Below, piece after piece: positions 1 to 32,912 of a stretch of DNA of 64,000 nucleotides. Positions within the stretch are counted from its first letter, which is position 1, and each line of letters begins with the position of its first letter. The stretch lies in the NCBI GenBank assembly GCA_017470165.1, contig JAFUEX010000012.1, positions 8,149 to 72,148 of the forward strand, in the 5' to 3' direction. Source of the DNA: Alphaproteobacteria bacterium. GTDB taxonomy: Bacteria > Pseudomonadota > Alphaproteobacteria > RF32 > CAG-239. The position numbers and the translations under genes were made by a program. The notes beneath the pieces were generated by a model, which saw only the letters and a list, made by a program, of their open reading frames with translations, did not search any database and had not been told where the DNA came from.

Positions 1-102
1 ATTTTGCACACAGTGAAACTCTGCCGCTTGGGCTTGGGTAAAGCCTAATAATTGCCGGAGGATTTTATACTCGGCGGCGGTTAAGTAGCCTTTTTTAGAC
101 AT
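1..102 (-). CDS. HTH (XRE/phage-type) DNA-binding protein, N-terminal part only; gene runs off the left edge
   Basis: My own minus-strand translation from the ATG at 102 gives MSKKGYLTAAEYKILRQLLGFTQAQAAEFHCVQN... The start overlaps the stop of the upstream 99-aa ORF by 8 nt (ATGTCTAA). Confidence 0.4.
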   Translation of the reverse strand, partial: MSKKGYLTAAEYKILRQLLGFTQAQAAEFHCVQN

Positions 103-394
103 TAAAATCCTCCTTTACAGCTAAGCCGCGCAAACAATCGACGGCCGAGTAATATATTTGCTCTCTTTTTGTCAGTTTGTCAAAATTGGGGAAACCTTTG
201 TTATGATCCCATTTCTGGCAGTCTAGGCAATGTTTTATGTGTTTTTTTATATCTGAAAAAGAAACTTTTTCCCCGGCAAGCAACATTTTTTCCGCTCTAA
301 ATTCATAATTATCTACATTGTAGCAAAGATTATGAATAGTGTCATCGATAGATATTAATTTGTTATAAATTTGCAACAAGTTTGTCATTTTCAT
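95..394 (-). CDS. hypothetical small protein (99 aa), probable mobile-element cargo
   Basis: ORF track entry. It is translationally coupled to the downstream HTH gene. No family recognised; HCLDCQKWDH may bind metal. Confidence 0.5.
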   Translation of the reverse strand: MKMTNLLQIYNKLISIDDTIHNLCYNVDNYEFRAEKMLLAGEKVSFSDIKKHIKHCLDCQKWDHNKGFPNFDKLTKREQIYYSAVDCLRGLAVKEDFNV

Positions 395-526
395 TCCCCT
401 TTAGAATTTTAAGGATTGCCCCTTTGGCTTCCTTTTATAATTTCATTGTATGTCATATTTTACGACAGGTCAAGAAGTTTTTATAAAAAATGAAAAAAAG
501 TTTGTGTAAGGGTGTAAATTTATAAG

Positions 527-547
527 TTGCACAAAACTTGCACAAAA
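527..547 (+). repeat. two direct copies of ttgcacaaaa spaced 11 bp apart (527-536, 538-547)
   Basis: Read directly from the sequence: aagTTGCACAAAAcTTGCACAAAAt. They sit in the AT-rich region next to the att-like junction, which fits arm-type recombinase sites. Confidence 0.6.
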
Positions 548-597
548 TATAAAATTATACAAAATAAAATAAATATTATCAAATATATAGTTTATGT

Positions 598-665
598 AAT
601 GCAGCAGATTGCTAATCTGTCATCGGGATACCGATGCAGAGGTTCGAATCCTCTACGCTCCGCCA
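598..665 (+). pseudogene. tRNA-Ser(GCU) 3' fragment; the 5' acceptor strand and D arm are missing
   Basis: It has an anticodon arm gcaga-TTGCTAA-tctgt, a long variable arm catcggg-ata-ccgatg and a T arm agagg-ttcgaat-cctct. The acceptor 3' strand acgctcc+g+CCA is present, but upstream sequence is AT-rich with no ggagcgt partner. Confidence 0.7.
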
Positions 666-726
666 GTTGAAAAACACTCCTTGATGGAGTGTTTTTTTAT
701 ATGCGGAGCAAGAGGACTATCACTTT
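652..726 (+). repeat. 75-bp direct repeat, copy 1 (last 14 nt of tRNA-Ser, terminator hairpin and flank)
   Basis: It matches 836-909 except for one substitution (cttGatgg vs cttTatgg) and one T-run length difference. Confidence 0.85.
669..698 (+). terminator. hairpin plus T-run downstream of the tRNA-Ser fragment
   Basis: aaaacactcc-ttgat-ggagtgtttt followed by a T-run. It is duplicated at about 854-881. Confidence 0.6.
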
Positions 727-835
727 GGAATGTAAGCTCATATACGGACAATTTACATTGTCCTAATTCGCTAACATTTTCCAAAGATGTTACAGACAAA
801 AACAACCGGAGCAACGGTTGTTTTTTGCTTAGCCA

Positions 836-909
836 TCTACGCTCCGCCAGTTGAAAAACACTCCTTTATGGAGTGTTTTTTATATGCGGAGCAAGAGGAC
901 TATCACTTT
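836..909 (+). repeat. 75-bp direct repeat, copy 2 (att-like scar)
   Basis: See 652-726. It carries only the last 14 nt of the tRNA plus the same downstream flank. Confidence 0.85.
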
Positions 910-1134
910 TTTTGTCACTGTTTTTCCTCTTTTTATTTTCAGCACTATCACCTCTTTTTTCTGCGGTGCATACCGCAGAAAAAATAGAGGGCTCGTCGTC
1001 AAAGGGAACAATAGTCACGAGACCGCTTATTCGCTCGTTCCTCGCTCAACGGTAACATAAAAAAGAAAGGCAGCTCAACGGTGACATTACAGCGCTATAG
1101 GGGAGGGGGTAGGATTCAATAAAAGCATCAAGCA

Positions 1135-1177
1135 CAAAAAATCCCTTAAGCCTTTGGCAAAAGGGATTTGTTTTTTT
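1135..1177. terminator. bidirectional hairpin terminator after tRNA-Val
   Basis: atccctt...aagggat stem flanked by an A-run on the left and a T-run on the right. Confidence 0.6.
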
Positions 1178-1253
1178 TGGTAGGCGCTGAGAGGTTCGAA
1201 CTCCCGACCCTCTCGGTGTAAACGAGATGCTCTTCCAGCTGAGCTAAGCGCCC
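1178..1253 (-). tRNA. tRNA-Val(UAC)
   Basis: The reverse complement gggcgcttagctcagctggaagagcatctcgTTTACACcgagagggtcgggagttcgaacctctcagcgcctacca folds as a cloverleaf. The anticodon loop is tTTACAc and CCA is encoded. Confidence 0.9.
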
Positions 1254-1328
1254 GTTGCAATCAACAAGAGGATTTATACACTCATCATTTTTAATAATCA
1301 AGTATTTTTTTTATTTTTTTGCATTTTT

Positions 1329-1928
1329 TTATTTGAGACCTTTCAAACGCCCGATTTGCGCGGCCCGCGGCTTGATGCACTCTTTTGCATAACATACGTT
1401 TTGCAGCTCATTGCCTGTAAAATACAGTTCGATTACTCCTTCACCGATACCCATTTTGACGCTTTGTCTCCAGTCATCAAAGTGCTGAGTTCGACTTGAG
1501 TCAATCACTCGGAGTCGGAGCATATTTTCAGTTCGGGCAAGCTCGTCGGTTATTATCGCAATATGTCCCCAGCGATGCTGCGGTGATCTGTTTACCAACG
1601 CCAGCAAATCCCCAGCCTGCAAGCGCTGCTGCCAATTAACCACATCCCAAGATGAGGAGCCGGTTTTAGATAATTCGCAAAAGAAATCATAAAAATCAAA
1701 TGAATATAGCCGTTCAATCCGATATTTTTTGACATCGCGCACTTGATTGATATAAGCATATATCTCCGCTAATGCTCTTGGGTGCGCTTGTTGCAGCCAA
1801 TATTCGGCCAAAGCCGAACAGTCGGCCTCCAAAATTCCGCGCGCTTCGTCTATCAGAGTTTGGTGCGAATAGGCGGTTTTGATGTTGCCTTGTTTTATCT
1901 CATTCAGCAGTTGACGCAAATAAAGCAT
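1329..1928 (-). CDS. hypothetical protein (199 aa)
   Basis: ORF track entry with no competing frame. It sits between two tRNA genes. No family recognised. Confidence 0.6.
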   Translation of the reverse strand: MLYLRQLLNEIKQGNIKTAYSHQTLIDEARGILEADCSALAEYWLQQAHPRALAEIYAYINQVRDVKKYRIERLYSFDFYDFFCELSKTGSSSWDVVNWQQRLQAGDLLALVNRSPQHRWGHIAIITDELARTENMLRLRVIDSSRTQHFDDWRQSVKMGIGEGVIELYFTGNELQNVCYAKECIKPRAAQIGRLKGLK

Positions 1929-2017
1929 AGTTTTTTCCCTTGGGATAATGACAAAGGCGAAGGTAACTTATAATAAGTCATCTCCGCCTTTTGTATCATT
2001 GCAGATTATAGTTCAGC

Positions 2018-2290
2018 TTAGTTTACGGAATCCTGCAAAGCCTTGCCTGCCTTAAATTTAGCCTGTTTGCGGGCAGGAATTTTGATGGCAGCGCCGGTGC
2101 GCGGGTTGCGGCCGGTAGTAGCCGATCTTTTGGCAACCGAGAAAGTCCCGAAACCAACCAAGCGAACATCGTCGCCTTTTTTCAAAGAATAAGTAACCGA
2201 ATTCAAGAAAGCATCCAAAGCCTTGGCGCAGTCGGTCTTGGTCAAACCGGTTGAATTAGCAATGCTGGAAATCAATTCATTTTTATTCAC
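2018..2290 (-). CDS. hup: HU family nucleoid DNA-binding protein
   Basis: 90 aa with MNKNELISSIA...GFGTFSVAKRSATTGRNPRTGAAIKIPARKQAKFKAGKAL, the classic HU/IHF signature. Confidence 0.9.
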   Translation of the reverse strand: MNKNELISSIANSTGLTKTDCAKALDAFLNSVTYSLKKGDDVRLVGFGTFSVAKRSATTGRNPRTGAAIKIPARKQAKFKAGKALQDSVN

Positions 2291-2464
2291 GGTAATAACT
2301 CCTATGCAAAATAAAGTTATAAACTAAACGCGATGTCTGCGGTATGCAATGCCCCGCGGTCATCTACAGCCTTGATTTGAGCATCAAAAAATAACTCTGT
2401 CAAACAAAATGCCAAGGTTATCAACGCTTTTGCACAGGTGGATGCATTTTTTTGTTTTTATTTA

Positions 2465-2494
2465 AGGAAAAACCCCGCTTGAAAAGAGCGGGGC
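2465..2494 (-). terminator. intrinsic terminator after tRNA-Thr
   Basis: On the minus strand, ccccgct-cttttca-agcgggg is followed by tttttcc. Confidence 0.65.
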
Positions 2495-2506
2495 GGATAA
2501 AAAACT

Positions 2507-2581
2507 GGTGCCGCTTGCGTGACTCGAACACGCGACCAACTGATTACGAATCAGCTACTCTACCAACTGAGCTAAAGCGGC
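2507..2581 (-). tRNA. tRNA-Thr(CGU)
   Basis: The reverse complement gccgctttagctcagttggtagagtagctgaTTCGTAAtcagttggtcgcgtgttcgagtcacgcaagcggcacca has acceptor gccgctt/aagcggc and anticodon CGT. Confidence 0.9.
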
Positions 2582-2613
2582 GCTCAACGCGAATATGTTT
2601 AGTATATATTTTT

Positions 2614-3882
2614 TTATTTGGCAAGTGATTTTATGCAATTGCTGAAATCTTTGCCGCGTTCTTCAAAATTTTTATAGGCATTATAACTGGGAGCTGCCGG
2701 TGATAATATGACTGTCCCGCCCGCGGGTGTTGCGGCAATGGCGCAGGCAACAGCTTGGTGCATATCGGCGGCGGCGCTTGTTTTGAGGCCGGCGGCTTCG
2801 GCCGGAGGAATAATTCGCGCACCGGTATCCGGCACAACTACCAGTTGCAGCCTTTCTTTCAGGCCGGCCAGCTCATCAATCAGCGAGGTATAATCTTGTC
2901 CGCGGTCAAAACCACCGACAATCAAGGTGAGGGGTTGACCTTTATCTAAGGCGCGGACGGCAGCGGCGGCGGTTTCCGGCGTGGTGGAGATGCTGTCGTC
3001 GACAAACTCTATCCCGCCGAACTTGCCTAAATTCTGCAGTCGATGCGCCAAGGGAGTGAACGAGGCAAAGGGTAGGGCATATTTACTCAACGGTTCGCCC
3101 ATAATTTTTAACACACTCAGCACGGCGCAGGCGTTGATGCAGTTGTGCTCGCCGGCAAGATTGAGCTTGCTCATAGCAAAAAGCTCGTGCGCTCCATCAT
3201 AAAAGCAGCCGTTTTCCAAGTGAATGGTGTCAGCAGTGTTAAAATATTCCCCCTTGAGCTCGCCGGTTAATTCAGAGGTGCGCTTATCTTGCGCATTAAG
3301 CAGTTTTATCTCGGCTTTTGCTATCATATTGAGTTTGTCGGCATAATATCTTGCGTGAGTTTGGTGCCATTGCAAATGTTCTGGATACAAATTCAGCAAG
3401 ACCCCGATATCTGCACCATAAGCCAAATCAGCACATTGATAACTCGACATCTCGGCAATTACCCAATCGGCAGAAGTGTCAGCCAATTCCACCAGCGGAC
3501 GACCAATGTTGCCGGCCAATTCCACCTTTTTGCCAAAATATTGCAAGCTGTGCGCCAACAGCGAGGCTGTAGTGCTTTTGCCTTTGGTGCCGGTTATGGC
3601 AACCACTTTGGTGGAGGGGGTTTTGTTGGCAAAAAACAAATTACTGGATGAGGTAAAGCGCACGCCTTCAGCTTTTGCCTTGGCAATTTCGCTGCGATAC
3701 AGGCTCACTCCGGGGGACTTTATTATCACCGCGCATTGCGATATATTGGCCAGATTATCTTCGCTTATTTCCATAATATTCGCGTTGGGACAGTGCTGCT
3801 TAAGGGCTGTTTTGGCGGCAAGACCTTCTTTGCCCATTCCCCATATTCCGACAGTGCGATTATTCAAATCTTGCCAGTACAT
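2614..3882 (-). CDS. murD: Mur ligase, MurD-type (UDP-MurNAc-L-Ala:glutamate ligase); possibly the L-Glu-adding MurD2 variant
   Basis: It has GIWGMGKEG (N-terminal Rossmann-like) and AITGTKGKSTT (Mur ligase P-loop), at MurD length. I prefer the ATG at 3882 over the TTG at 3888. It overlaps the upstream gene by about 23 nt. Confidence 0.85.
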   Translation of the reverse strand: MYWQDLNNRTVGIWGMGKEGLAAKTALKQHCPNANIMEISEDNLANISQCAVIIKSPGVSLYRSEIAKAKAEGVRFTSSSNLFFANKTPSTKVVAITGTKGKSTTASLLAHSLQYFGKKVELAGNIGRPLVELADTSADWVIAEMSSYQCADLAYGADIGVLLNLYPEHLQWHQTHARYYADKLNMIAKAEIKLLNAQDKRTSELTGELKGEYFNTADTIHLENGCFYDGAHELFAMSKLNLAGEHNCINACAVLSVLKIMGEPLSKYALPFASFTPLAHRLQNLGKFGGIEFVDDSISTTPETAAAAVRALDKGQPLTLIVGGFDRGQDYTSLIDELAGLKERLQLVVVPDTGARIIPPAEAAGLKTSAAADMHQAVACAIAATPAGGTVILSPAAPSYNAYKNFEERGKDFSNCIKSLAK

Positions 3883-5173
3883 CGCCAAATTCCTTGGGGA
3901 TTAAATGTTTTTTGTTGGGAATGAACAGTTTTTTAGCTGACTGCGGCGGAATTTTGCCGGACAGTGCTTTGATAACACAATCATTTTGCCACTCGGGCTT
4001 TTGGCTCAAGCTGTAAAAAGCAAACCGACACTCTCCTTTGGTGCCGACACACTCAAACGGCTTGTGTCCTTTTAGTCCCAACAGCTCTTTATAGCCTTCG
4101 ATTTGGGTTGCGTCATCCAGCGGATTTTTCCCGATGATTTCAATCAGCTTTTGTTTTTCCATAAACAAAGCCAGCACCAAAAACACAAAACGGCATTTGT
4201 CGCAGTTGCCGCACCAATGGTCCAAACGAGCGGTTTTGTCCAGCTTAAAGGCTTTGTTGCAACTGGTAAATACATCAAAATAATCCGCACATTTTTCGCA
4301 GAATAATTTGGCAATATGCACCTCACTCAACGGACGCAGCAGAGAAAAATAGCGAAATTCCGGAGTTATGGTTCGGGTGAGGGCATAAAAATCACGCTCA
4401 AACTCGGCTGATTTGCTGTATTGATGGTTGATGGTGATGCCGGCCAGTTCAAAATTACCCTCGGAGGCCGAGCGCTCACAAGACATCATCACATATTTTT
4501 TGTTATAAACAATCGCGGCAATCCACATTACAAAAGCCAAAATACCGGTAACCGGCACATGGCCGTTATAAACATTGCCCGAGGCATTGAGCTCGGCCAA
4601 ATTGGGCGAGATGCGGCGTTTGATAATATAAGATGTGCCGCCGGTTATGTCCATTACGTTTTGTATCGGAGCAGCATCACCGCAGGCAATTGTGGAGGAT
4701 TCAATCCCCATTTCTTGCGCCAGTTTGATGGTAACGCACGAGTCCTTGCCGCCACCCACCGGTATCAGCGCTTCGTCTGCCATATAAGGAAATTCTGCTT
4801 TGCGCGGAGGAACATCAGTATAAGGAAAATTAATCCGCGAGAAAAAGTTGAGCCGGTTGCGCGCAGCAAATTCCCCCAATCCGTTGATATAAAATTTGTT
4901 GAAAAATGCGGCTTCCGCCTCGTTGATGGTGAACTCGCTCAGCGCCAAAAAATAGGGCAATACGGTTTTGTAATAACTCACTCCTGCGGCAATATGCAGA
5001 TAGTTGAGTGCATATTTCAGAGTCGCTTTTTGTTGCTCGCTCAGATAAAACGGGGCATTGGGAAACTCATATTCTTCCGTGAAATGATATTTGTCATCGA
5101 TATCATATTCCAGCCTGATAATTCCGGTATCAAGGGCGAATCTTGCCTTGCTGAAATACATTACTGCTGCCAT
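3860..5173 (-). CDS. PP-loop ATPase-like protein, candidate MurL (UDP-MurNAc-L-Ala-L-Glu epimerase)
   Basis: 437 aa with a PVGGGKDSCV motif (SGGxDS-like PP-loop) and a WCGNCDKCRF Cys motif. It is coupled to a murD that lies outside any dcw context. The functional call is inference. Confidence 0.55.
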   Translation of the reverse strand: MAAVMYFSKARFALDTGIIRLEYDIDDKYHFTEEYEFPNAPFYLSEQQKATLKYALNYLHIAAGVSYYKTVLPYFLALSEFTINEAEAAFFNKFYINGLGEFAARNRLNFFSRINFPYTDVPPRKAEFPYMADEALIPVGGGKDSCVTIKLAQEMGIESSTIACGDAAPIQNVMDITGGTSYIIKRRISPNLAELNASGNVYNGHVPVTGILAFVMWIAAIVYNKKYVMMSCERSASEGNFELAGITINHQYSKSAEFERDFYALTRTITPEFRYFSLLRPLSEVHIAKLFCEKCADYFDVFTSCNKAFKLDKTARLDHWCGNCDKCRFVFLVLALFMEKQKLIEIIGKNPLDDATQIEGYKELLGLKGHKPFECVGTKGECRFAFYSLSQKPEWQNDCVIKALSGKIPPQSAKKLFIPNKKHLIPKEFGDVLARFE

Positions 5174-5193
5174 TTCTATCTCCTTTATTTTTT

Positions 5194-7563
5194 TTAAGAC
5201 TGAGCCTGATGAACCACAATTTGACTAAACGGAATTTCGATATTGTTTTCAATAAATTTTTCATTAATCATAAAGCGGATATCACTGGGCGTTGTCCATC
5301 CTTTCCAAATGTCGTTAACATAAAAACGCACTTCAAAATCCAACGAACTGCTGCCAAAATCCTTGAACAATACGTAAGGTGCCGGCTTTTTGACCACTTT
5401 GGGATGATTGAGTGCGCAATCCAATAAAATTTGCTCAACCTTTTTGACATCACTGCCATAAGCAACCCCGACTTTTACCGAGTAGCGAGCCCAGTTGTTT
5501 TGATGGGTGAGGTTAGTCACCGCATTGGATAAAACCTTGGAGTTGGGGATAATCAGACTGGAGCGGGTAAAAGTTTCAATTTCGGTGGAGCGAATGTTGA
5601 TTTGCTTAATTTGGCCTTCTTCGCCGTTGATAATTACCCAATCTCCAACCTTAATCGGGCGTTCGAACAGCATAATGATGCCCGAAACAAAGTTGTTGAC
5701 AATATCTTGCAGACCCAAACCGATACCAACCGACAGAGCGCCGGCAATCAGTGCGATGTTGCTCAAATTACCTCCCATAATGGCAATAGCCAAAAGTCCG
5801 GAAAGTACATAGCCGATATAGGCAAACCCCGAAGCTAGCGAGTGTTTGGTGCCGGCATCAATCGAAGTGCGCTCCAATATTTTGAACTCGATTCTGTCTT
5901 GCAAAAAGCGGATAATCCACAAGCAGATTACAAAAGCCAAAATTCCCCAAAATATTGAGACCAGTGAAATTTTTACCCCGCCGACAGTAAAACCGTAAAC
6001 GGCCTTGTAAGCAATACTTTGCAATACGTCGGTCGGCATTCCCCACAATATCAGCAAAAGAGCCATAAATCCGAGAGTTATCAGCGGCTCGATGGCAAAT
6101 CCGAACCAAAAATCAACTTTGCGCAGAAAAATTCTCCGCATATGAAAGTTTTTGACCCACAACCCCATAAACAACAACCGGCGGCCGACGTCATAAATAA
6201 AGCGCCGCAAAATAGTGTAAACAAATAAGGCGGCCAATGACAATAATGTGCGGTTTACCACGAAAAATGCCAGTTGGGCATAGCCCAAAAAGGCCAAACT
6301 GATGACACAAAAGACAAACAGCATTACAACAACACCAATTCTTGAGGCGCGGTTTTTGGCAGATGTTGCGGCTTCGGCGGCGTTTTTAGTATTTTTGGCA
6401 GATTCGTCGGAATCACTCATAAAATAGATATAAGTCAGCCACACCATACAAATTGCTCGAAGCGAGGCTGAAAGCGCCATCAGATAGCTTAACAGCTCCA
6501 ATGAATAATGTTGCAGCATTACAATCGCCATCAAGATGGAGAACAGACCTACGGTATAGATGGTGAAATTAATTGCCTTAAACAAGCGTTTGGCTTTTTC
6601 GGTTGACATATTAATCAGGCGCCATTTTTCATTATAAGGGGTGAGGATAACCCGAGCAAAGGCGCGTCCCATGGTTACAAACAGCGCATAAGAAAGCGAG
6701 GTTTGTAGCACCAGTTTGAAAAAGGCGTTATTCCAAAATACAATCAGACTCAGGTGATACCAGCAATAGATAATAATCGCTGTAGGTATAATGCCATAGG
6801 CACACCACACCGCAACCGAGGCGGCAATTTTGCGCCCCAAACGCAGGTTGTCAATGTCGCTGCGATAGCCCCAATGAGTTATGACAAAGCGCCGCATATA
6901 ATATCCCAGTGCGGTAATCAGGGCCAAGAGAGCTAAAAATTTGCCGATGGCTGCTCCGGCGCCTTGTTCGCCACTCTCTTTATATTCCAAATATGCCGCA
7001 TAAGGCGATTTGGCAATATCGGCTAGCAAAACCATCAGTTCGCTGTTGGCTTTCCATAATACAGCGGGATTAATAAAACGCAAATCCAGTTTCAACAGAT
7101 TACCCCACAACCTTTGGTTGCGGATGTCAAAAATGCGTAAGTTTATTTCTTCTATCTTGGCTGATAAAACATCAATCTCGGACAAGCGGGTTTTCTCGGT
7201 GGTCAGTTCCTGATTAAATTCGTGACGTTGCTGAGCAATAACCTTGGCCTCGGGGGATTCGCCTGAGCTTTCTCCCAATGCTTCGATGCGTTTTTCAATC
7301 AGCTTTATCTCGCCGTTGATGCTCTCGCGAGAGGAAGAAAGCGAGGTAAGCGTGGCGTTAAGATAGGATATTTTGGCAACCAATGCCTTGACGTCGGGCT
7401 TTTCCGCCTTGGTCATTGCTTCAATCTCTTTTAGGCTTTTGGATATCTCTTTATAGCTCAGGTTATATCCCAAATCATCGATGTGATTGGTTTGCGCTTG
7501 CGCAGTAAAACTCAACAACAGCGCCGCAGTCAGCCAAATTCCGAGTTTGTGTATCATTCTCAT
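5194..7563 (-). CDS. large mechanosensitive channel of the MscS family (MscK/MscM-like)
   Basis: 789 aa with a signal peptide, a coiled-coil periplasmic region and many TM helices. The C-terminal MscS core reads GLQDIVNNFVSGIIMLFERPIKVGDWV. Confidence 0.85.
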   Translation of the reverse strand: MRMIHKLGIWLTAALLLSFTAQAQTNHIDDLGYNLSYKEISKSLKEIEAMTKAEKPDVKALVAKISYLNATLTSLSSSRESINGEIKLIEKRIEALGESSGESPEAKVIAQQRHEFNQELTTEKTRLSEIDVLSAKIEEINLRIFDIRNQRLWGNLLKLDLRFINPAVLWKANSELMVLLADIAKSPYAAYLEYKESGEQGAGAAIGKFLALLALITALGYYMRRFVITHWGYRSDIDNLRLGRKIAASVAVWCAYGIIPTAIIIYCWYHLSLIVFWNNAFFKLVLQTSLSYALFVTMGRAFARVILTPYNEKWRLINMSTEKAKRLFKAINFTIYTVGLFSILMAIVMLQHYSLELLSYLMALSASLRAICMVWLTYIYFMSDSDESAKNTKNAAEAATSAKNRASRIGVVVMLFVFCVISLAFLGYAQLAFFVVNRTLLSLAALFVYTILRRFIYDVGRRLLFMGLWVKNFHMRRIFLRKVDFWFGFAIEPLITLGFMALLLILWGMPTDVLQSIAYKAVYGFTVGGVKISLVSIFWGILAFVICLWIIRFLQDRIEFKILERTSIDAGTKHSLASGFAYIGYVLSGLLAIAIMGGNLSNIALIAGALSVGIGLGLQDIVNNFVSGIIMLFERPIKVGDWVIINGEEGQIKQINIRSTEIETFTRSSLIIPNSKVLSNAVTNLTHQNNWARYSVKVGVAYGSDVKKVEQILLDCALNHPKVVKKPAPYVLFKDFGSSSLDFEVRFYVNDIWKGWTTPSDIRFMINEKFIENNIEIPFSQIVVHQAQS

Positions 7564-7566
7564 TGT

Positions 7567-8538
7567 CTAAACCTTCCAACTTTTTAATATTGCGGCAATA
7601 TCCGCAGCCGCGTTCAGGTTAATATCTCCGGAAACCCAAAAACCAAGACCGTTGTCTACCGTAGTGTCACTGCGGACTCGGCTGATGAAAATATCCGTTT
7701 CGCCCTGAGCATCGGTAAGGGTGGCATAGCCGCCGTCTTTTTGTTGGTCGTTAAGACGGATGCCGCGGGCATTGGCAAACTCTCCCATAGCTGCATCAAT
7801 ATCAGCATCAGCGTCCAATTCCGCATTGATAAACATTCCGGCTCCGATAAACACCGGCACTATTGCACAGTTGGCGTGAACTTTAATCTCGCTGCCGAGC
7901 CCGCGTTTAATCTGCGAGTTGAGCATCCATTCAAACTCCGTCTCCTCACCGATAAAACTTCCGGCCTGAGGGATGACATTGAATGCCAAAGTTTTGGGAA
8001 AAATCCTTTTGTCTTGCGGCACATCGTTCATCAAAATCCGCCTTGTGTGATTATACAGTTCGTTCATTCCCTCCTCGCCGGCCATATCCGCGCCGATATA
8101 AGCACTGAGGCGGATGGTTTTGATGCGGTATTTTTTTAAGACGTTTAAGGCGCGCAAGGCCGCGGCAGCCAAAGGATGCGGGTAATTAATCAAAGGGGCG
8201 GACTTCAAAACTTCGGCTCCGCTGACAACCAGCGGGGCAAAGGCAAAATCGGCTGCTTCGGTGGCATTGATAACCCGAGCTTTACCCTTGAGCGCTTGAG
8301 GAATATAATCTTTGGCCAAAACCTCATCAGCAACAAACACCACAGACGCAAAAGAATCCCAATCGGCTTGAGCAACGTTCGCATAACGGAGGGTGTCATC
8401 GCCAAAACTCAGTTCATCGTTGCCGCCGGCAGCTTTAAGCAAGGTTATGTCGTCCTTTTTTACGCCTCTTAAGTGCAAAAATTCCAAAAGGTGCGATATT
8501 ATTGCATTACGCGCTCCGACAATTGCCAGTTTTGCCAT
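7567..8538 (-). CDS. aspartate-semialdehyde dehydrogenase-like protein with degenerate catalytic motifs
   Basis: ASD-like blocks are retained (GMNELYNHTR, AFNVIPQ, DGGYATL, ISRVRSD). The Rossmann, Cys, Gln, Arg and His motifs are replaced. The start is ambiguous (8538, 8550 or 8592); MAKLAIVG fits the family N-terminus best. Confidence 0.7.
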   Translation of the reverse strand: MAKLAIVGARNAIISHLLEFLHLRGVKKDDITLLKAAGGNDELSFGDDTLRYANVAQADWDSFASVVFVADEVLAKDYIPQALKGKARVINATEAADFAFAPLVVSGAEVLKSAPLINYPHPLAAAALRALNVLKKYRIKTIRLSAYIGADMAGEEGMNELYNHTRRILMNDVPQDKRIFPKTLAFNVIPQAGSFIGEETEFEWMLNSQIKRGLGSEIKVHANCAIVPVFIGAGMFINAELDADADIDAAMGEFANARGIRLNDQQKDGGYATLTDAQGETDIFISRVRSDTTVDNGLGFWVSGDINLNAAADIAAILKSWKV

Positions 8539-8712
8539 CGGTTTTATCATTTCCTTTTTTTGTGTTAAACTTGAGCTCAAAATTACACGCAATTACTGTT
8601 CATCTCAATAAAATATCACTCTCTATTAACAAGTTTCTTGACATATTGCCTAAAATGGCGTTATTTTAGCTCCGCAAAACAAATTAACCGTAAATTTATA
8701 AGGAACAGAGCA

Positions 8713-10017
8713 ATGACTGCACGCACATTACAAGGTTTTATGGAACTTTTGCCGCAAGAACAATTGGTGTTCAACCATATTAAATCGGTCATTGCTCATA
8801 CTTATGAATTGTTTGGTTTTGTGCCGTTGGATACTCCAGTGCTGGAGCTGGCGGAGGTGTTGTTGTCAAAGTCCGGCGGTGAGACCGAAAAACAAATTTA
8901 TGAGTTCAAAAAAGGCGATACGGATTTGGCAATGCGGTTTGATTTGACCGTGCCTTTGGCGAAGTATGTGGCTTTGTACAACAATGATTTGACCTTTCCG
9001 TTCAAGCGTTATCAAATCGGCAAAGTTTATCGCGGCGAACGTCCGCAAAAAGGGCGCTTCAGAGAGTTTTATCAGTGTGATATCGATGTTATTGACCGCG
9101 ATGAGCTGAATATTGTGTATGATGCGGAGCTTTTGGCGGTTATTTATACCATATTTTCGCGTCTTGAGCTGCCGGCTTTCAAGATTTATATCAACAATCG
9201 GCGCTTGCTGAGCGGCTATTTGGCCTCTTTGAATATTGCCGACAAAACCGTTGAGGTGCTGAGACTGGTTGATAAGATTAAAAAACTGCCGCATGAGGTG
9301 TTTTTGGCAGAGCTGCGTGATTTGCAATTGTCGGAAGAGCAAAATAATGCACTGTTGGATTTTATCAAGATTCAGGGCGATAATGCGACGATTTTGGCTA
9401 AACTCGGTGCTTTGGCTCAAGACAATGCCGAATATACTACCGGATTGGCCGAGTTGAAAACAGTGGTTGACAATGCACTGGCTTTGGGCGTTCCGGCGCA
9501 AAATATACAAATTGATTTGAGCATTACTCGCGGGCTGGATTATTATACCGGCACGGTTTACGAGACATTTTTTGATGATTATCCGCAGTTTGGCTCGGTT
9601 TGTTCCGGCGGACGTTATGACAATCTCTCCTCGGTATTCGGCGGGCAGAAATTCCCCGGAGTGGGGATTTCCATCGGGCTTACCCGCTTGTTTGACCAGT
9701 TGCGAGCGCATAATTTGTTGTCGTTCCCCAAACTGACGCCTAACAAAGCATTGATTATCACTCAGGGAGAAGAGTTTACGGCTGCTGCGGTTAAGCTGGC
9801 GCAAGCACTCAGGGAGGCGGATATTGCCACCGATATTATGTATCGCAGCTGCAAATTCAAAAAGAAGATGGAATATGCCAATAAAATCGGCATTCCTTAC
9901 TTGATTATCATCGGCGAGGATGAGGCGGCGACCGGTGAGTTTACACTCAAAGATATGTCAAGCGGCGAGCAAAGCAGGGTAGGGCAAGCGGCTCTGATTG
10001 CCAAACTACGGGGATGA
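8713..10017 (+). CDS. hisS: histidyl-tRNA synthetase
   Basis: Class II aaRS motifs are present: FRYERPQKGRFREFYQ-like (YRGERPQKGRFREFYQCD) and GGRYDNL...GVGISIGLTRL. I prefer the ATG at 8713, preceded by aaggaac, over the ORF-track start at 8638. Confidence 0.9.
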   Translation: MTARTLQGFMELLPQEQLVFNHIKSVIAHTYELFGFVPLDTPVLELAEVLLSKSGGETEKQIYEFKKGDTDLAMRFDLTVPLAKYVALYNNDLTFPFKRYQIGKVYRGERPQKGRFREFYQCDIDVIDRDELNIVYDAELLAVIYTIFSRLELPAFKIYINNRRLLSGYLASLNIADKTVEVLRLVDKIKKLPHEVFLAELRDLQLSEEQNNALLDFIKIQGDNATILAKLGALAQDNAEYTTGLAELKTVVDNALALGVPAQNIQIDLSITRGLDYYTGTVYETFFDDYPQFGSVCSGGRYDNLSSVFGGQKFPGVGISIGLTRLFDQLRAHNLLSFPKLTPNKALIITQGEEFTAAAVKLAQALREADIATDIMYRSCKFKKKMEYANKIGIPYLIIIGEDEAATGEFTLKDMSSGEQSRVGQAALIAKLRG

Positions 10018-30582: not shown

Positions 30583-31965
30583 ATGATAAAAAACTTAACC
30601 AAAGGCTCTCCGCTTAAACTGATTGTGATGTTTGCCATGCCGATTTTAATCGGCAACTTGTTTCAGCAATTGTTTCATATTTCGGATATTTTGATTGTGG
30701 GGCGATTGCTGGGGGTTAAGTCGTTGGCGGCGGTCGGTTCGTCGGCTCCGCTGATATTTATGTTTTTGATGGTGGCGTTCGGGTTTACTTCGGGGCTGAC
30801 CATTATCACGGCACAACGCTTTGGTGCGCATGATGAAAAAGGCATCAAATCGTCGGTTTTTCATTCATTAACAGCGGCAGGTGTGCTGAGTTTGACGGTC
30901 AGCACGTTTTTTATCGCCTGTCTGAGGTATTTGCTCAGATATATGAACATCCCCGAAGAAATTATGGATCAGGCTTATAGCTTTACGCTGATTTTGGGGC
31001 TGGCGATGACGCCGGTGATATTATACAACCTGCTATCAGGGTTTATTCGGGCGCTGGGGGATGCCAAAACTCCGCTGTATTTTTTGATTTTTTGCTCGTT
31101 GATTAACATCGCTCTGAATTTTGTATTTATCTACTATTGCGGGTTGGGCGTGGCCGGTTCGGCCTTGGGGTCGTGCTGCTCGATGTTGCTGACGGTAGCC
31201 GCCTGTGTGTGGATTATTGCTAAAAGATTTCCGCTGTTAAAAATCAGTTTGGCCGATTGCCGTTATAATCACAAATTTATGCTGGAACATCTGAAAGTGG
31301 CAGCTCCGATGGCAGTGCAATTTTCGATTTTGGCGCTGAGTATGATGATTATCCAGAGTGTGTGTAATTCTTTCGGCACGGAGGTGATTGCCGGATTTAC
31401 CGCGGCGCTACGCATTGAGCAGATATCTACCCAGCCGGTGTTTGCCATTGGTGTGGCCTTTGCCACCTATGCAGCACAAAACTATGGTGCCGCCCTGATA
31501 AAGCGTATCAGGCAAGGGGTTAGACAGTGCTTGGCGGCCTGTTTGGTGCTGAGTGTACTCATATCGTTGGGAGTGCGTTTTTTCGGCACCCATTTGGTGG
31601 GAGCGTTTATTGAAGGAGGAGATGAAGGGATTATCACCATAGGGCAGCAATATCTGATGATAAGCTCGTATTTTTATTTCTTTTTGGCGTGTATTTTTAT
31701 CACCCGCAACGCGCTGCAAGGGATGGGGCGTCCTTCGATTCCGCTGGCCTCAGGAGTATTTGAGTTGATAATCAGGGCGTTTGCTGCGGTTTATTTGGCC
31801 AATATCATCGGCTATTACGGCATATTTTGGGCCGGACCAATTGCTTGGGTCGGCGGCGCATTGGTAACCTCTTTGGGATATTGGTGGACCATTACTCACC
31901 TGAACAACGGTGATATGCGCGGAATTTTTGCTCGCAAAAAGGCGCTGCAAAAAGCCGGTTGTTGA
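30583..31965 (+). CDS. MATE family efflux transporter
   Basis: 12-TM protein with N-terminus PLKLIVMFAMPILIGNLFQQLFHISDILIVGRLLG, typical of MATE. Confidence 0.85.
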   Translation: MIKNLTKGSPLKLIVMFAMPILIGNLFQQLFHISDILIVGRLLGVKSLAAVGSSAPLIFMFLMVAFGFTSGLTIITAQRFGAHDEKGIKSSVFHSLTAAGVLSLTVSTFFIACLRYLLRYMNIPEEIMDQAYSFTLILGLAMTPVILYNLLSGFIRALGDAKTPLYFLIFCSLINIALNFVFIYYCGLGVAGSALGSCCSMLLTVAACVWIIAKRFPLLKISLADCRYNHKFMLEHLKVAAPMAVQFSILALSMMIIQSVCNSFGTEVIAGFTAALRIEQISTQPVFAIGVAFATYAAQNYGAALIKRIRQGVRQCLAACLVLSVLISLGVRFFGTHLVGAFIEGGDEGIITIGQQYLMISSYFYFFLACIFITRNALQGMGRPSIPLASGVFELIIRAFAAVYLANIIGYYGIFWAGPIAWVGGALVTSLGYWWTITHLNNGDMRGIFARKKALQKAGC

Positions 31966-32043
31966 TTACCGATACAAAAGTACGAAAAAAAATCCCCCGC
32001 CGTGGTTCAACCCAAACGAGGGATTTTGTTTGTTTGCTTCAGG

Positions 32044-32625
32044 TTAAAAAGAATATCTTAAACCTGCAGTTACTTCAGCCGCATGGTTGAGGTCGGAAGC
32101 GCCGATATAAGCATAGCGACCGACAATACGGGCAGAAACCTGCTGAGTGATGTTATACATGGCGCCGCCGCCGATACGCCAACCGATGTGGTTGTTGGTA
32201 TCGTTGACATCACCGTTGAAGCCTTTGTAGTAATAATCGGCAACACCGATGGTGCCCAACAGCTCGTATTTACCCTCACACCCCAAAGGCAAATAGCCGT
32301 ACATATCCAAACCGTAAGCATTGACACGGGTTTTGATTTTGCCCTCGACGGTGTCTTTGGTGCGGCCGAAACTCCACTGTCCGAACACCTCGCCACCGAC
32401 ATTGTCAACGCGGGTACCAAAGTTTACCAAACCGGAATGATAGGATTTTTTGGCATCATGCAGGCTGCCTTTGAAGTCAAAATCATCAAAAGCATAATCT
32501 GCACCGACATAAACTTTGGCATTTTGCGACATATGGTCAGCTTTGTTGGAAAACCAGTTGGCCGCTTGGGCTTGGGTGGTCATCAAAGCGCAGGCAACAC
32601 CTGCAAGTAATAATGTCTTTTTCAT
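32044..32625 (-). CDS. small outer-membrane beta-barrel protein (Omp25/OmpA-barrel-like)
   Basis: It has the signal peptide MKKTLLLAGVACALMTTQAQA, alternating aromatic/Gly strands and a C-terminal ...GLRYSF. Confidence 0.75.
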   Translation of the reverse strand: MKKTLLLAGVACALMTTQAQAANWFSNKADHMSQNAKVYVGADYAFDDFDFKGSLHDAKKSYHSGLVNFGTRVDNVGGEVFGQWSFGRTKDTVEGKIKTRVNAYGLDMYGYLPLGCEGKYELLGTIGVADYYYKGFNGDVNDTNNHIGWRIGGGAMYNITQQVSARIVGRYAYIGASDLNHAAEVTAGLRYSF

Positions 32626-32912
32626 ATTATTTAAAACTCCATTTATAAATAGGTTTCTTGTTATAACTAATAGTCCTATTTAAACCGAGCTTTTATTCGG
32701 TTTGCAAAATTTAGATAATTCGCATAAATAAATTTTAAAGGGGGTGAGGAAAATATTTTTTTATTTCAAGCGCAACTGCTTATATATTTTCCTTTTAATA
32801 CCGGTTATGCCAAAATAATCAAGGAAATGTTTAATCCATCAGGCGTCTTTTTCATAAAATATTAAATAGTGCAATGTTATGCTAAACTATGGATTAATTT
32901 TTTATATAAAGG

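Follow-up and report, generated by a model that had tools for sequence, protein, structure and literature searches.

In Xanthomonas oryzae, the D-glutamate (D-Glu) of peptidoglycan is made through the epimerase MurL, encoded by XOO_1319, and the ligase MurD2, encoded by XOO_1320 (PMC8788868). The epimerisation to D-Glu by MurL is accompanied by the consumption of ATP and the release of AMP; the enzyme was described as having no known domains, and adenylation of the alpha-carboxylate was proposed as its chemistry (PMC8788868, PMC5808125). Mutagenesis of MurD2 has established that Glu197 and Arg358, which correspond to Asp182 and Lys348 of Escherichia coli MurD, control stereospecificity: the E197D/R358K double mutant is a D-Glu ligase, and the P433A and F435L substitutions leave the specificity unchanged (PMC8788868). 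The route has been stated for "relatively few genera", and the Alphaproteobacteria listed are Devosia, Pelagibacterium, and Parvularcula (PMC8788868, PMC5808125). Here we describe a candidate MurL/MurD2 pair in a 64,000-nucleotide stretch of DNA (hereafter, the window; positions 8,149 to 72,148 of contig JAFUEX010000012.1, assembly GCA_017470165.1) from an uncultured rumen/gut alphaproteobacterium, where a 437-amino-acid (aa) protein and a MurD-type ligase are encoded one after the other on the minus strand. Very probably, the pair is an operon with coupled translation that serves the MurD2/MurL route to peptidoglycan D-Glu, a reading based on the homology of both proteins, the specificity residues and clade of the ligase, the coupling of the genes, a genome with neither murI nor a second murD, and a QueC-like fold in the 437-aa protein.

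An initial annotation, made from the sequence alone, had placed a MurD-type ligase between tRNA-Thr and a 437-aa protein whose gene overlaps it by about 23 nucleotides (nt), had pointed out the motifs PVGGGKDSCV and WCGNCDKCRF in that protein, and had offered the MurD2/MurL route as an interpretation. The arrangement was confirmed, with an overlap of exactly 23 nt when the ligase begins at ATG 3882, and both motifs are present; the proposed route is supported by MurL homology, by Glu170 and Arg329 of the ligase, by the membership of the ligase in a murL-linked clade, and by the absence of murI. The X. oryzae locus tags had been swapped, in that XOO_1320, the tag of MurD2, was given for MurL (PMC8788868). 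The pair comprises the following features:

3860–5173, minus strand: murL, open reading frame (ORF) of 437 aa, with stop codon TAA at 3862–3860 and start codon ATG at 5173
2614–3882, minus strand: MurD2-type ligase gene, 422 aa from ATG 3882
3860–3882, minus strand: 23-nt overlap between the 3' end of murL and the start of the ligase gene, read directly from the sequence
3891–3895, minus strand: Shine-Dalgarno site AAGGA of the ligase gene, within murL, with an 8-nt spacer to ATG 3882
5180–5185, minus strand: Shine-Dalgarno site AAGGAG of murL, 6 nt ahead of ATG 5173
4739–4756, minus strand: PP-loop motif GGGKDS (within IPVGGGKDSCV), MurL residues 140–145, in the loop that joins the first strand of the QueC-like domain to its first helix
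4193–4261, minus strand: MurL cysteine cluster Cys305-x15-Cys321-x2-Cys324-x2-Cys327, a probable zinc site of the QueC type
4193–4213, minus strand: WCGNCDKCRF with Cys321, Cys324, and Cys327; the Cys305 codon lies at 4259–4261
3379–3381, minus strand: ligase Glu170 (numbering from TTG), equivalent to X. oryzae MurD2 Glu197 and E. coli MurD Asp182
2902–2904, minus strand: ligase Arg329 (numbering from TTG), equivalent to X. oryzae MurD2 Arg358 and E. coli MurD Lys348

The murL gene starts 20 nt past the stop codon of a 789-aa channel gene, and we propose that its translation is coupled to that of the ligase through the 23-nt overlap. ATG 3882 is the likelier start of the ligase; the start given in the ORF listing, TTG 3888, would leave a spacer of 2 nt to the AAGGA site, compared with 8 nt for ATG 3882, and alignments with homologs also favor the latter.

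Judged by its sequence, the region 3860–5173 encodes a full-length MurL homolog. The comparison of the 437-aa protein with MurL that the initial annotation had suggested gave a match to the NCBIfam model NF041275 ("MurL_Xanthmoales") over model positions 10–442 of 447 (E = 6.8e-123, 410 bits). This model was named and tuned for Xanthomonadales, with an equivalog cutoff of 700 bits, and genomes above that cutoff took the place of the X. oryzae reference in our comparisons; the E-I-R-P-F residues of their ligases agree with the published Glu197, Arg358, Pro433, and Phe435. In common with the MurLs of this Xanthomonadales type, the window protein has the invariant GGGKDS motif and the four cysteines (Cys4): across 27 aligned sequences, Xanthomonadales-type MurLs included, Gly140 to Asp144 and Cys305, Cys321, Cys324, and Cys327 are invariant, and Ser145 is replaced by Ala in one. 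His205, Glu233, His250, and Lys254 of MurL are invariant as well. A Pfam-A profile search of the window MurL returned no match even at E ≤ 10, and a sequence search of the PDB with it returned no match either; the database's precomputed tags on the protein are PF26298 and PF26299. At least 7,975 MurL homologs are present in the protein database, and some of those from gut Alphaproteobacteria (P0053, P0074) are named "endonuclease domain-containing protein" by NCBI.

Among 401 genomes sampled from the phylum, MurL was matched in 20, with murD after it wherever the flank was readable; the match was strong in 19 genomes, and 13 of these fell under 700 bits. In these sub-cutoff genomes, murD follows murL in all 12 with a readable flank, and a real murI was found in none of the 13. 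Taken over all 19 strong murL-positive genomes, real murI genes again number zero, whereas of 20 genomes of the same class that lack murL, 16 have one. Four small genomes of this class (G004, G016, G028, and G080; 1.6–2.7 Mb, 100% complete) lack both murI and murL and carry a canonical MurD with D-K-K-A.

The ligase matches TIGR01087 (murD) with 298 bits against a cutoff of 212, and it is because this cutoff is exceeded that pipelines label it a D-glutamate ligase. It shares with canonical MurD (E. coli b0088; TIGR01087) the three-domain Mur ligase architecture and the ATP P-loop (GTKGKST), but it is 27% identical to it, carries E-I-R-P in place of Asp182, Lys319, Lys348, and Ala414, falls into a separate clade (100/100), and is encoded outside the mraY–ftsW interval. 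The specificity positions were compared by aligning the window ligase with E. coli K-12 MurD, 95 murL-adjacent ligases (the partners of six MurLs scoring 770–823 bits among them), and 21 canonical MurDs whose genomes lack murL (20 belong to the same class); residue numbering in the literature leaves out the initiator Met. At the positions of E. coli Asp182, Lys319, Lys348, Ala414, and Leu416, the window ligase has Glu170, Ile300, Arg329, Pro400, and Tyr402. E-I-R was found in 95 of the 95 murL-linked ligases, almost always followed by P, and the Xanthomonadales type reads E-I-R-P-F, whereas every one of the 21 canonical MurDs has D-K-K-A. Pro400 matches Pro433 of the X. oryzae type, and Tyr402 stands where that type has Phe435; this fifth position has no discriminating power, because it is aromatic in murL-linked and canonical ligases alike. 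In a maximum-likelihood tree, the murL-linked and canonical ligases split at 100/99 and 100/100, with the window ligase inside a gut-alphaproteobacterial subclade on the murL-linked side. The assignment of the window ligase to the MurD2 type, and not to canonical MurD, is supported at the level of residues and phylogeny.

The window ligase is the single MurD-family ligase of the host genome (1.45 Mb in 26 contigs, 88.9% complete, contamination 0.47%), which also carries murE, murF, two murC/mpl-like genes, mraY, murG, ddl, ftsW/ftsI-like genes, ftsA, and ftsZ; the interval of about 1.2 kb from mraY to murG is too short to hold a murD. Profile searches of the genome for glutamate racemase (TIGR00067 and PF01177) and for class-IV aminotransferases (PF01063) returned no matches; the murI, D-amino-acid transaminase, and second murD genes that the initial annotation had named for checking were not found in this 88.9% complete assembly. 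Four congeners have murI directly beside a gene for a histidine-phosphatase-like protein of about 195 aa; the host ortholog of this partner gene (C7:20225–20806) lies in the middle of an 80-kb contig, and upstream of it there is a 205-bp spacer followed by an MscL-like gene (site C7:20225–21506). Searching the host genome by tBLASTn with the MurI of congeners likewise revealed no murI or remnant of one. With the site beside the partner gene empty in mid-contig and tBLASTn without a match, the absence of murI is considered real.

The locus resembles the X. oryzae system in that murL lies directly upstream of the ligase gene, both proteins are homologous over their full length, the ligase has the Glu and Arg (and Pro) residues, and the genome lacks murI and a D-amino-acid aminotransferase. 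It differs in its setting, between a mechanosensitive-channel gene and tRNA-Thr in a gut/rumen alphaproteobacterium, and in sequence, the window proteins being 37–39% (MurL, relative to MurLs scoring 770–823 bits) and 35–38% (ligase) identical to the Xanthomonadales type, with Tyr replacing Phe435. Genomes of 215 species match two MurL motifs, and the best 80 loci all belong to uncultured gut/rumen Alphaproteobacteria; in 78 of these 80, a ligase gene follows murL on the same strand, adjacent or overlapping, and in the other two the contig ends right past murL. The window pair is a known pathway in a lineage outside the reviews' list, the pathway itself not being new, and it adds to the evidence that the MurD2/MurL route extends far beyond the "relatively few genera" of those reviews.

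The fold of MurL was examined through structure prediction. An AlphaFold model of the full-length protein (predicted local distance difference test score, pLDDT, 89; predicted template modeling score, pTM, 0.91) places GGGKDS between a strand at 132–138 and a helix at 143–154. A fold search with the whole chain gave weak and mixed matches (best E = 1.6e-3), including generic Rossmann proteins such as GalE, and was set aside; the central domain alone gave a clear QueC match. When residues 120–345 were modelled alone (pLDDT 88.7), the top match was QueC 3bl5 (E = 9.6e-7, template modeling scores 0.63/0.71), followed by QueC 2pg3 (E = 1.1e-6), the QueC-like Cap9, and then MnmA, NAD/NMN synthetase, argininosuccinate synthase, TtuA, and LarE; most of the 46 matches at E ≤ 1e-3 are PP-loop enzymes. 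The model supports a central domain that folds like QueC, of the PP-loop ATP pyrophosphatase (AANH) superfamily, and Cys4 is probably a zinc site of the QueC type. QueC chemistry starts with the ATP-dependent adenylation of a substrate carboxylate, with release of AMP. Because the fold search puts this carboxylate-adenylating enzyme nearest, the idea in the initial annotation of a PP-loop protein that adenylates its substrate finds support in the predicted structure.

Like QueC (3bl5, 2pg3), Cap9, and QatC, MurL would have its PP-loop at the junction of strand 1 and helix 1 and a C-terminal C...CxxCxxC motif. It differs from QueC in several ways: sequence identity is 15–17% and MurL has no match to the Pfam QueC family; MurL adds an N-terminal beta/alpha domain (residues ~1–118) and a C-terminal helical extension (~346–437); its motif is GGGKDS, versus SGGxDS; and its substrate is another one, with epimerisation as the outcome in place of nitrile formation. 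How MurL adenylates its substrate can be framed as a concrete structural hypothesis on the basis of the QueC-like fold. The chemistry itself is that described for the enzymes of X. oryzae, Micromonospora, and Salinispora, and its transfer to this host, together with the placement of the adenylation site, is by analogy. On that basis, the MurD2-type ligase would attach L-Glu, not D-Glu, onto UDP-MurNAc-L-Ala with ATP; MurL would adenylate the alpha-carboxylate of the terminal L-Glu at the expense of one ATP, via its QueC-like PP-loop domain (GGGKDS, probable Cys4 zinc site); and adenylation would acidify the C-alpha proton, leading to inversion of the residue. A cell using the MurD2/MurL route would, as a consequence, need neither a glutamate racemase nor a pool of free D-Glu.

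Several observations weigh against this assignment. The window MurL, at 410 bits, stays below the NCBIfam equivalog cutoff, and its identity to Xanthomonadales MurL is no higher than 37–39%. The fifth specificity position of the ligase is Tyr, not Phe, though canonical MurDs are also aromatic there, and the MurD of Streptococcus mutans has Arg at the Lys348 position yet uses D-Glu (PMC8788868); Arg at this position is, by itself, not diagnostic. In addition, a completeness of 89% may leave room for a non-orthologous source of D-Glu, an alanine-racemase-like gene is present at C17:40499–41590, and uptake of D-Glu from the gut may be another source. Some of these points lend themselves to an explanation in which the ligase works as a conventional MurD on D-Glu, the supply of which has escaped detection (a gene within the 11% of the genome that is missing, a racemase with promiscuous activity, or gut uptake), and the PP-loop protein acts on the stem peptide or a nucleotide in some other way; the incomplete genome, the Alr-like ORF, and the sub-cutoff MurL score would all fit. 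Such an arrangement is nonetheless improbable, given that the ligase has Glu and Arg, not Asp and Lys, at the stereospecificity positions known from mutagenesis, that the murI site is empty inside an 80-kb contig, that 24 of the 25 genomes in the genus have one of murL and murI and not the other, and that the tight coupling of murL to the ligase gene is kept in 78 of 80 loci.

Still less credible is a pair that was recently transferred and is non-functional or redundant, or that entered the assembly on a mis-binned contig, and that is not the D-Glu supply of the host. The closest cassettes do come from other gut Alphaproteobacteria, in different genomic contexts, which fits horizontal arrival. 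Both ORFs, however, are intact and preceded by good Shine-Dalgarno sites, the window ligase is the sole murD of the genome, and the arrangement recurs in at least four species; as for mis-binning, the flanking channel gene is 70–78% identical to that of the nearest congeners, the slot is syntenic, and contamination stands at 0.47%. We accordingly retain the MurD2/MurL operon as the preferred reading of the locus and place it in its genomic surroundings, which are marked by the following features:

2506–2581, minus strand: tRNA-Thr(CGU), called by ARAGORN, the downstream boundary of the ligase slot
2472–2494, minus strand: intrinsic-terminator-like hairpin just past tRNA-Thr, with 8 pairs (6 of them GC) and a T-run, a consensus match only
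5194–7563, minus strand: mechanosensitive-channel (MscS/MscK-like) gene, 789 aa, stop codon at 5194–5196, the upstream boundary of the slot
8638–10017, plus strand: hisS, on the side of the slot where rsmH-ftsL-ftsI stands in the related locus L212
2018–2290, minus strand: HU-like gene, downstream of the operon terminator
1178–1253, minus strand: tRNA-Val(UAC), downstream of the operon terminator
1329–1928 and 95–394, minus strand: ORFs of 199 aa and 99 aa, near the window start

The hairpin after tRNA-Thr is the only strong terminator-like hairpin on the minus strand and is the probable end of the transcription unit.

The slot between the channel gene and tRNA-Thr (window positions 2582–5193 and their equivalents) was compared across 24 other species of the genus, G402–G424 (loci L133–L154) among them. 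In 21 of these congeners, the genome has murI and no murL; two (G412 and G415) match the window genome, with murL present and murI absent, and one incomplete genome has neither. All 24 carry an ortholog of the channel gene directly upstream of a single murD, and in most congeners of both types the ligase ends 30–80 nt before tRNA-Thr. The isolated position of murD, from which the initial annotation had taken its cue, is thus real, but it is a trait of the lineage and not a marker of MurD2, because murI-type congeners keep their sole murD in the same slot outside the dcw cluster. Placement of a murL cassette in the channel/tRNA-Thr slot was seen in 4 of the 80 best loci, which are only the closest relatives of the window.

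The murI-type congeners carry a third type of ligase, with V-I-N-P-F at the positions of E. coli Asp182, Lys319, Lys348, Ala414, and Leu416. These ligases are 34–38% identical to the window ligase, and the flanking channel proteins are 46–60% identical. V/I-I-N/L-P-F is common to all 120 nearest database homologs of the third-type ligase (at least 120 sequence clusters), and in divergent members the asd-like / channel / ligase neighborhood persists with no murL. Both MurD2-type and V-I-N-type ligases are annotated as D-glutamate ligase, which hides the difference in pathway. In the ligase tree, the V-I-N-P-F ligases are united in one long-stemmed clade (100/100) on the MurD2 side, sister to the murL-linked ligase from a genome of the same order (96/94). 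An approximately unbiased (AU) test rejects the window-type and V-I-N ligases of the genus as sister groups (p = 0.009), and at least one homolog-for-homolog replacement must therefore have taken place in the slot; a position of the V-I-N ligases outside the E-I-R-P crown is not rejected (p = 0.13).

The order of events was approached through the species phylogeny. The murL-type clade groups with seven (channel tree) or six (rpoB tree) V-I-N species, at 100/100 in each. Owing to a very long outgroup branch, monophyly of the murI-type congeners on rpoB is not rejected by the AU test (p = 0.31), which does not settle the root of the genus; L212 and L214, chosen as nearer outgroups, fall inside the genus. 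A secondary acquisition of murL-murD2 by the subclade of the window is favored by these trees, and by the finding of the murL cassette in this slot only in the closest relatives of the window (4 of 80 loci), although not proven. A database search with the MurI of congeners matched only close relatives, at 66% identity or more, and gave no clue to the origin of MurI. It is conceivable, if not quite probable, that the genus presents a natural and possibly two-way switch of D-Glu routes at one slot: the V-I-N ligase would derive from MurD2, have lost the Glu/Arg pair, and have returned to D-Glu by means of residues (V/I and N/L) other than the canonical Asp and Lys, and the subclade of the window (at least four species) would have re-acquired murL-murD2 from another gut alphaproteobacterium, with replacement of the resident ligase in place and loss of murI. 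Within this scenario, the swap is supported by the AU test; that the V-I-N ligase is specific for D-Glu, and in which direction the switch ran, is our inference only. The congeners are, in any event, close natural relatives whose genomes diverge in D-Glu route at one defined locus, and the V-I-N-P-F ligase provides a natural test of the residues that set Glu stereospecificity in Mur ligases.

The origin of the slot itself may be glimpsed in L212 (GCA_949290215.1 contig, 1–7371), whose ligase is of the V-I-L type and whose channel ortholog carries PF00924/PF21082. There, the asd-like / channel / ligase slot stands directly after rsmH-ftsL-ftsI, which gives the isolated murD slot the look of a dcw-cluster head that has broken away and taken in two genes. 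Elsewhere in the host genome, the two MurC/Mpl-like paralogs (C17:17669–19027 and 31413–32807) score 272 and 299 bits, with a murC equivalog cutoff of 335; one of them adjoins an LD-carboxypeptidase-like gene, which suggests an Mpl-like recycling ligase beside a biosynthetic MurC.

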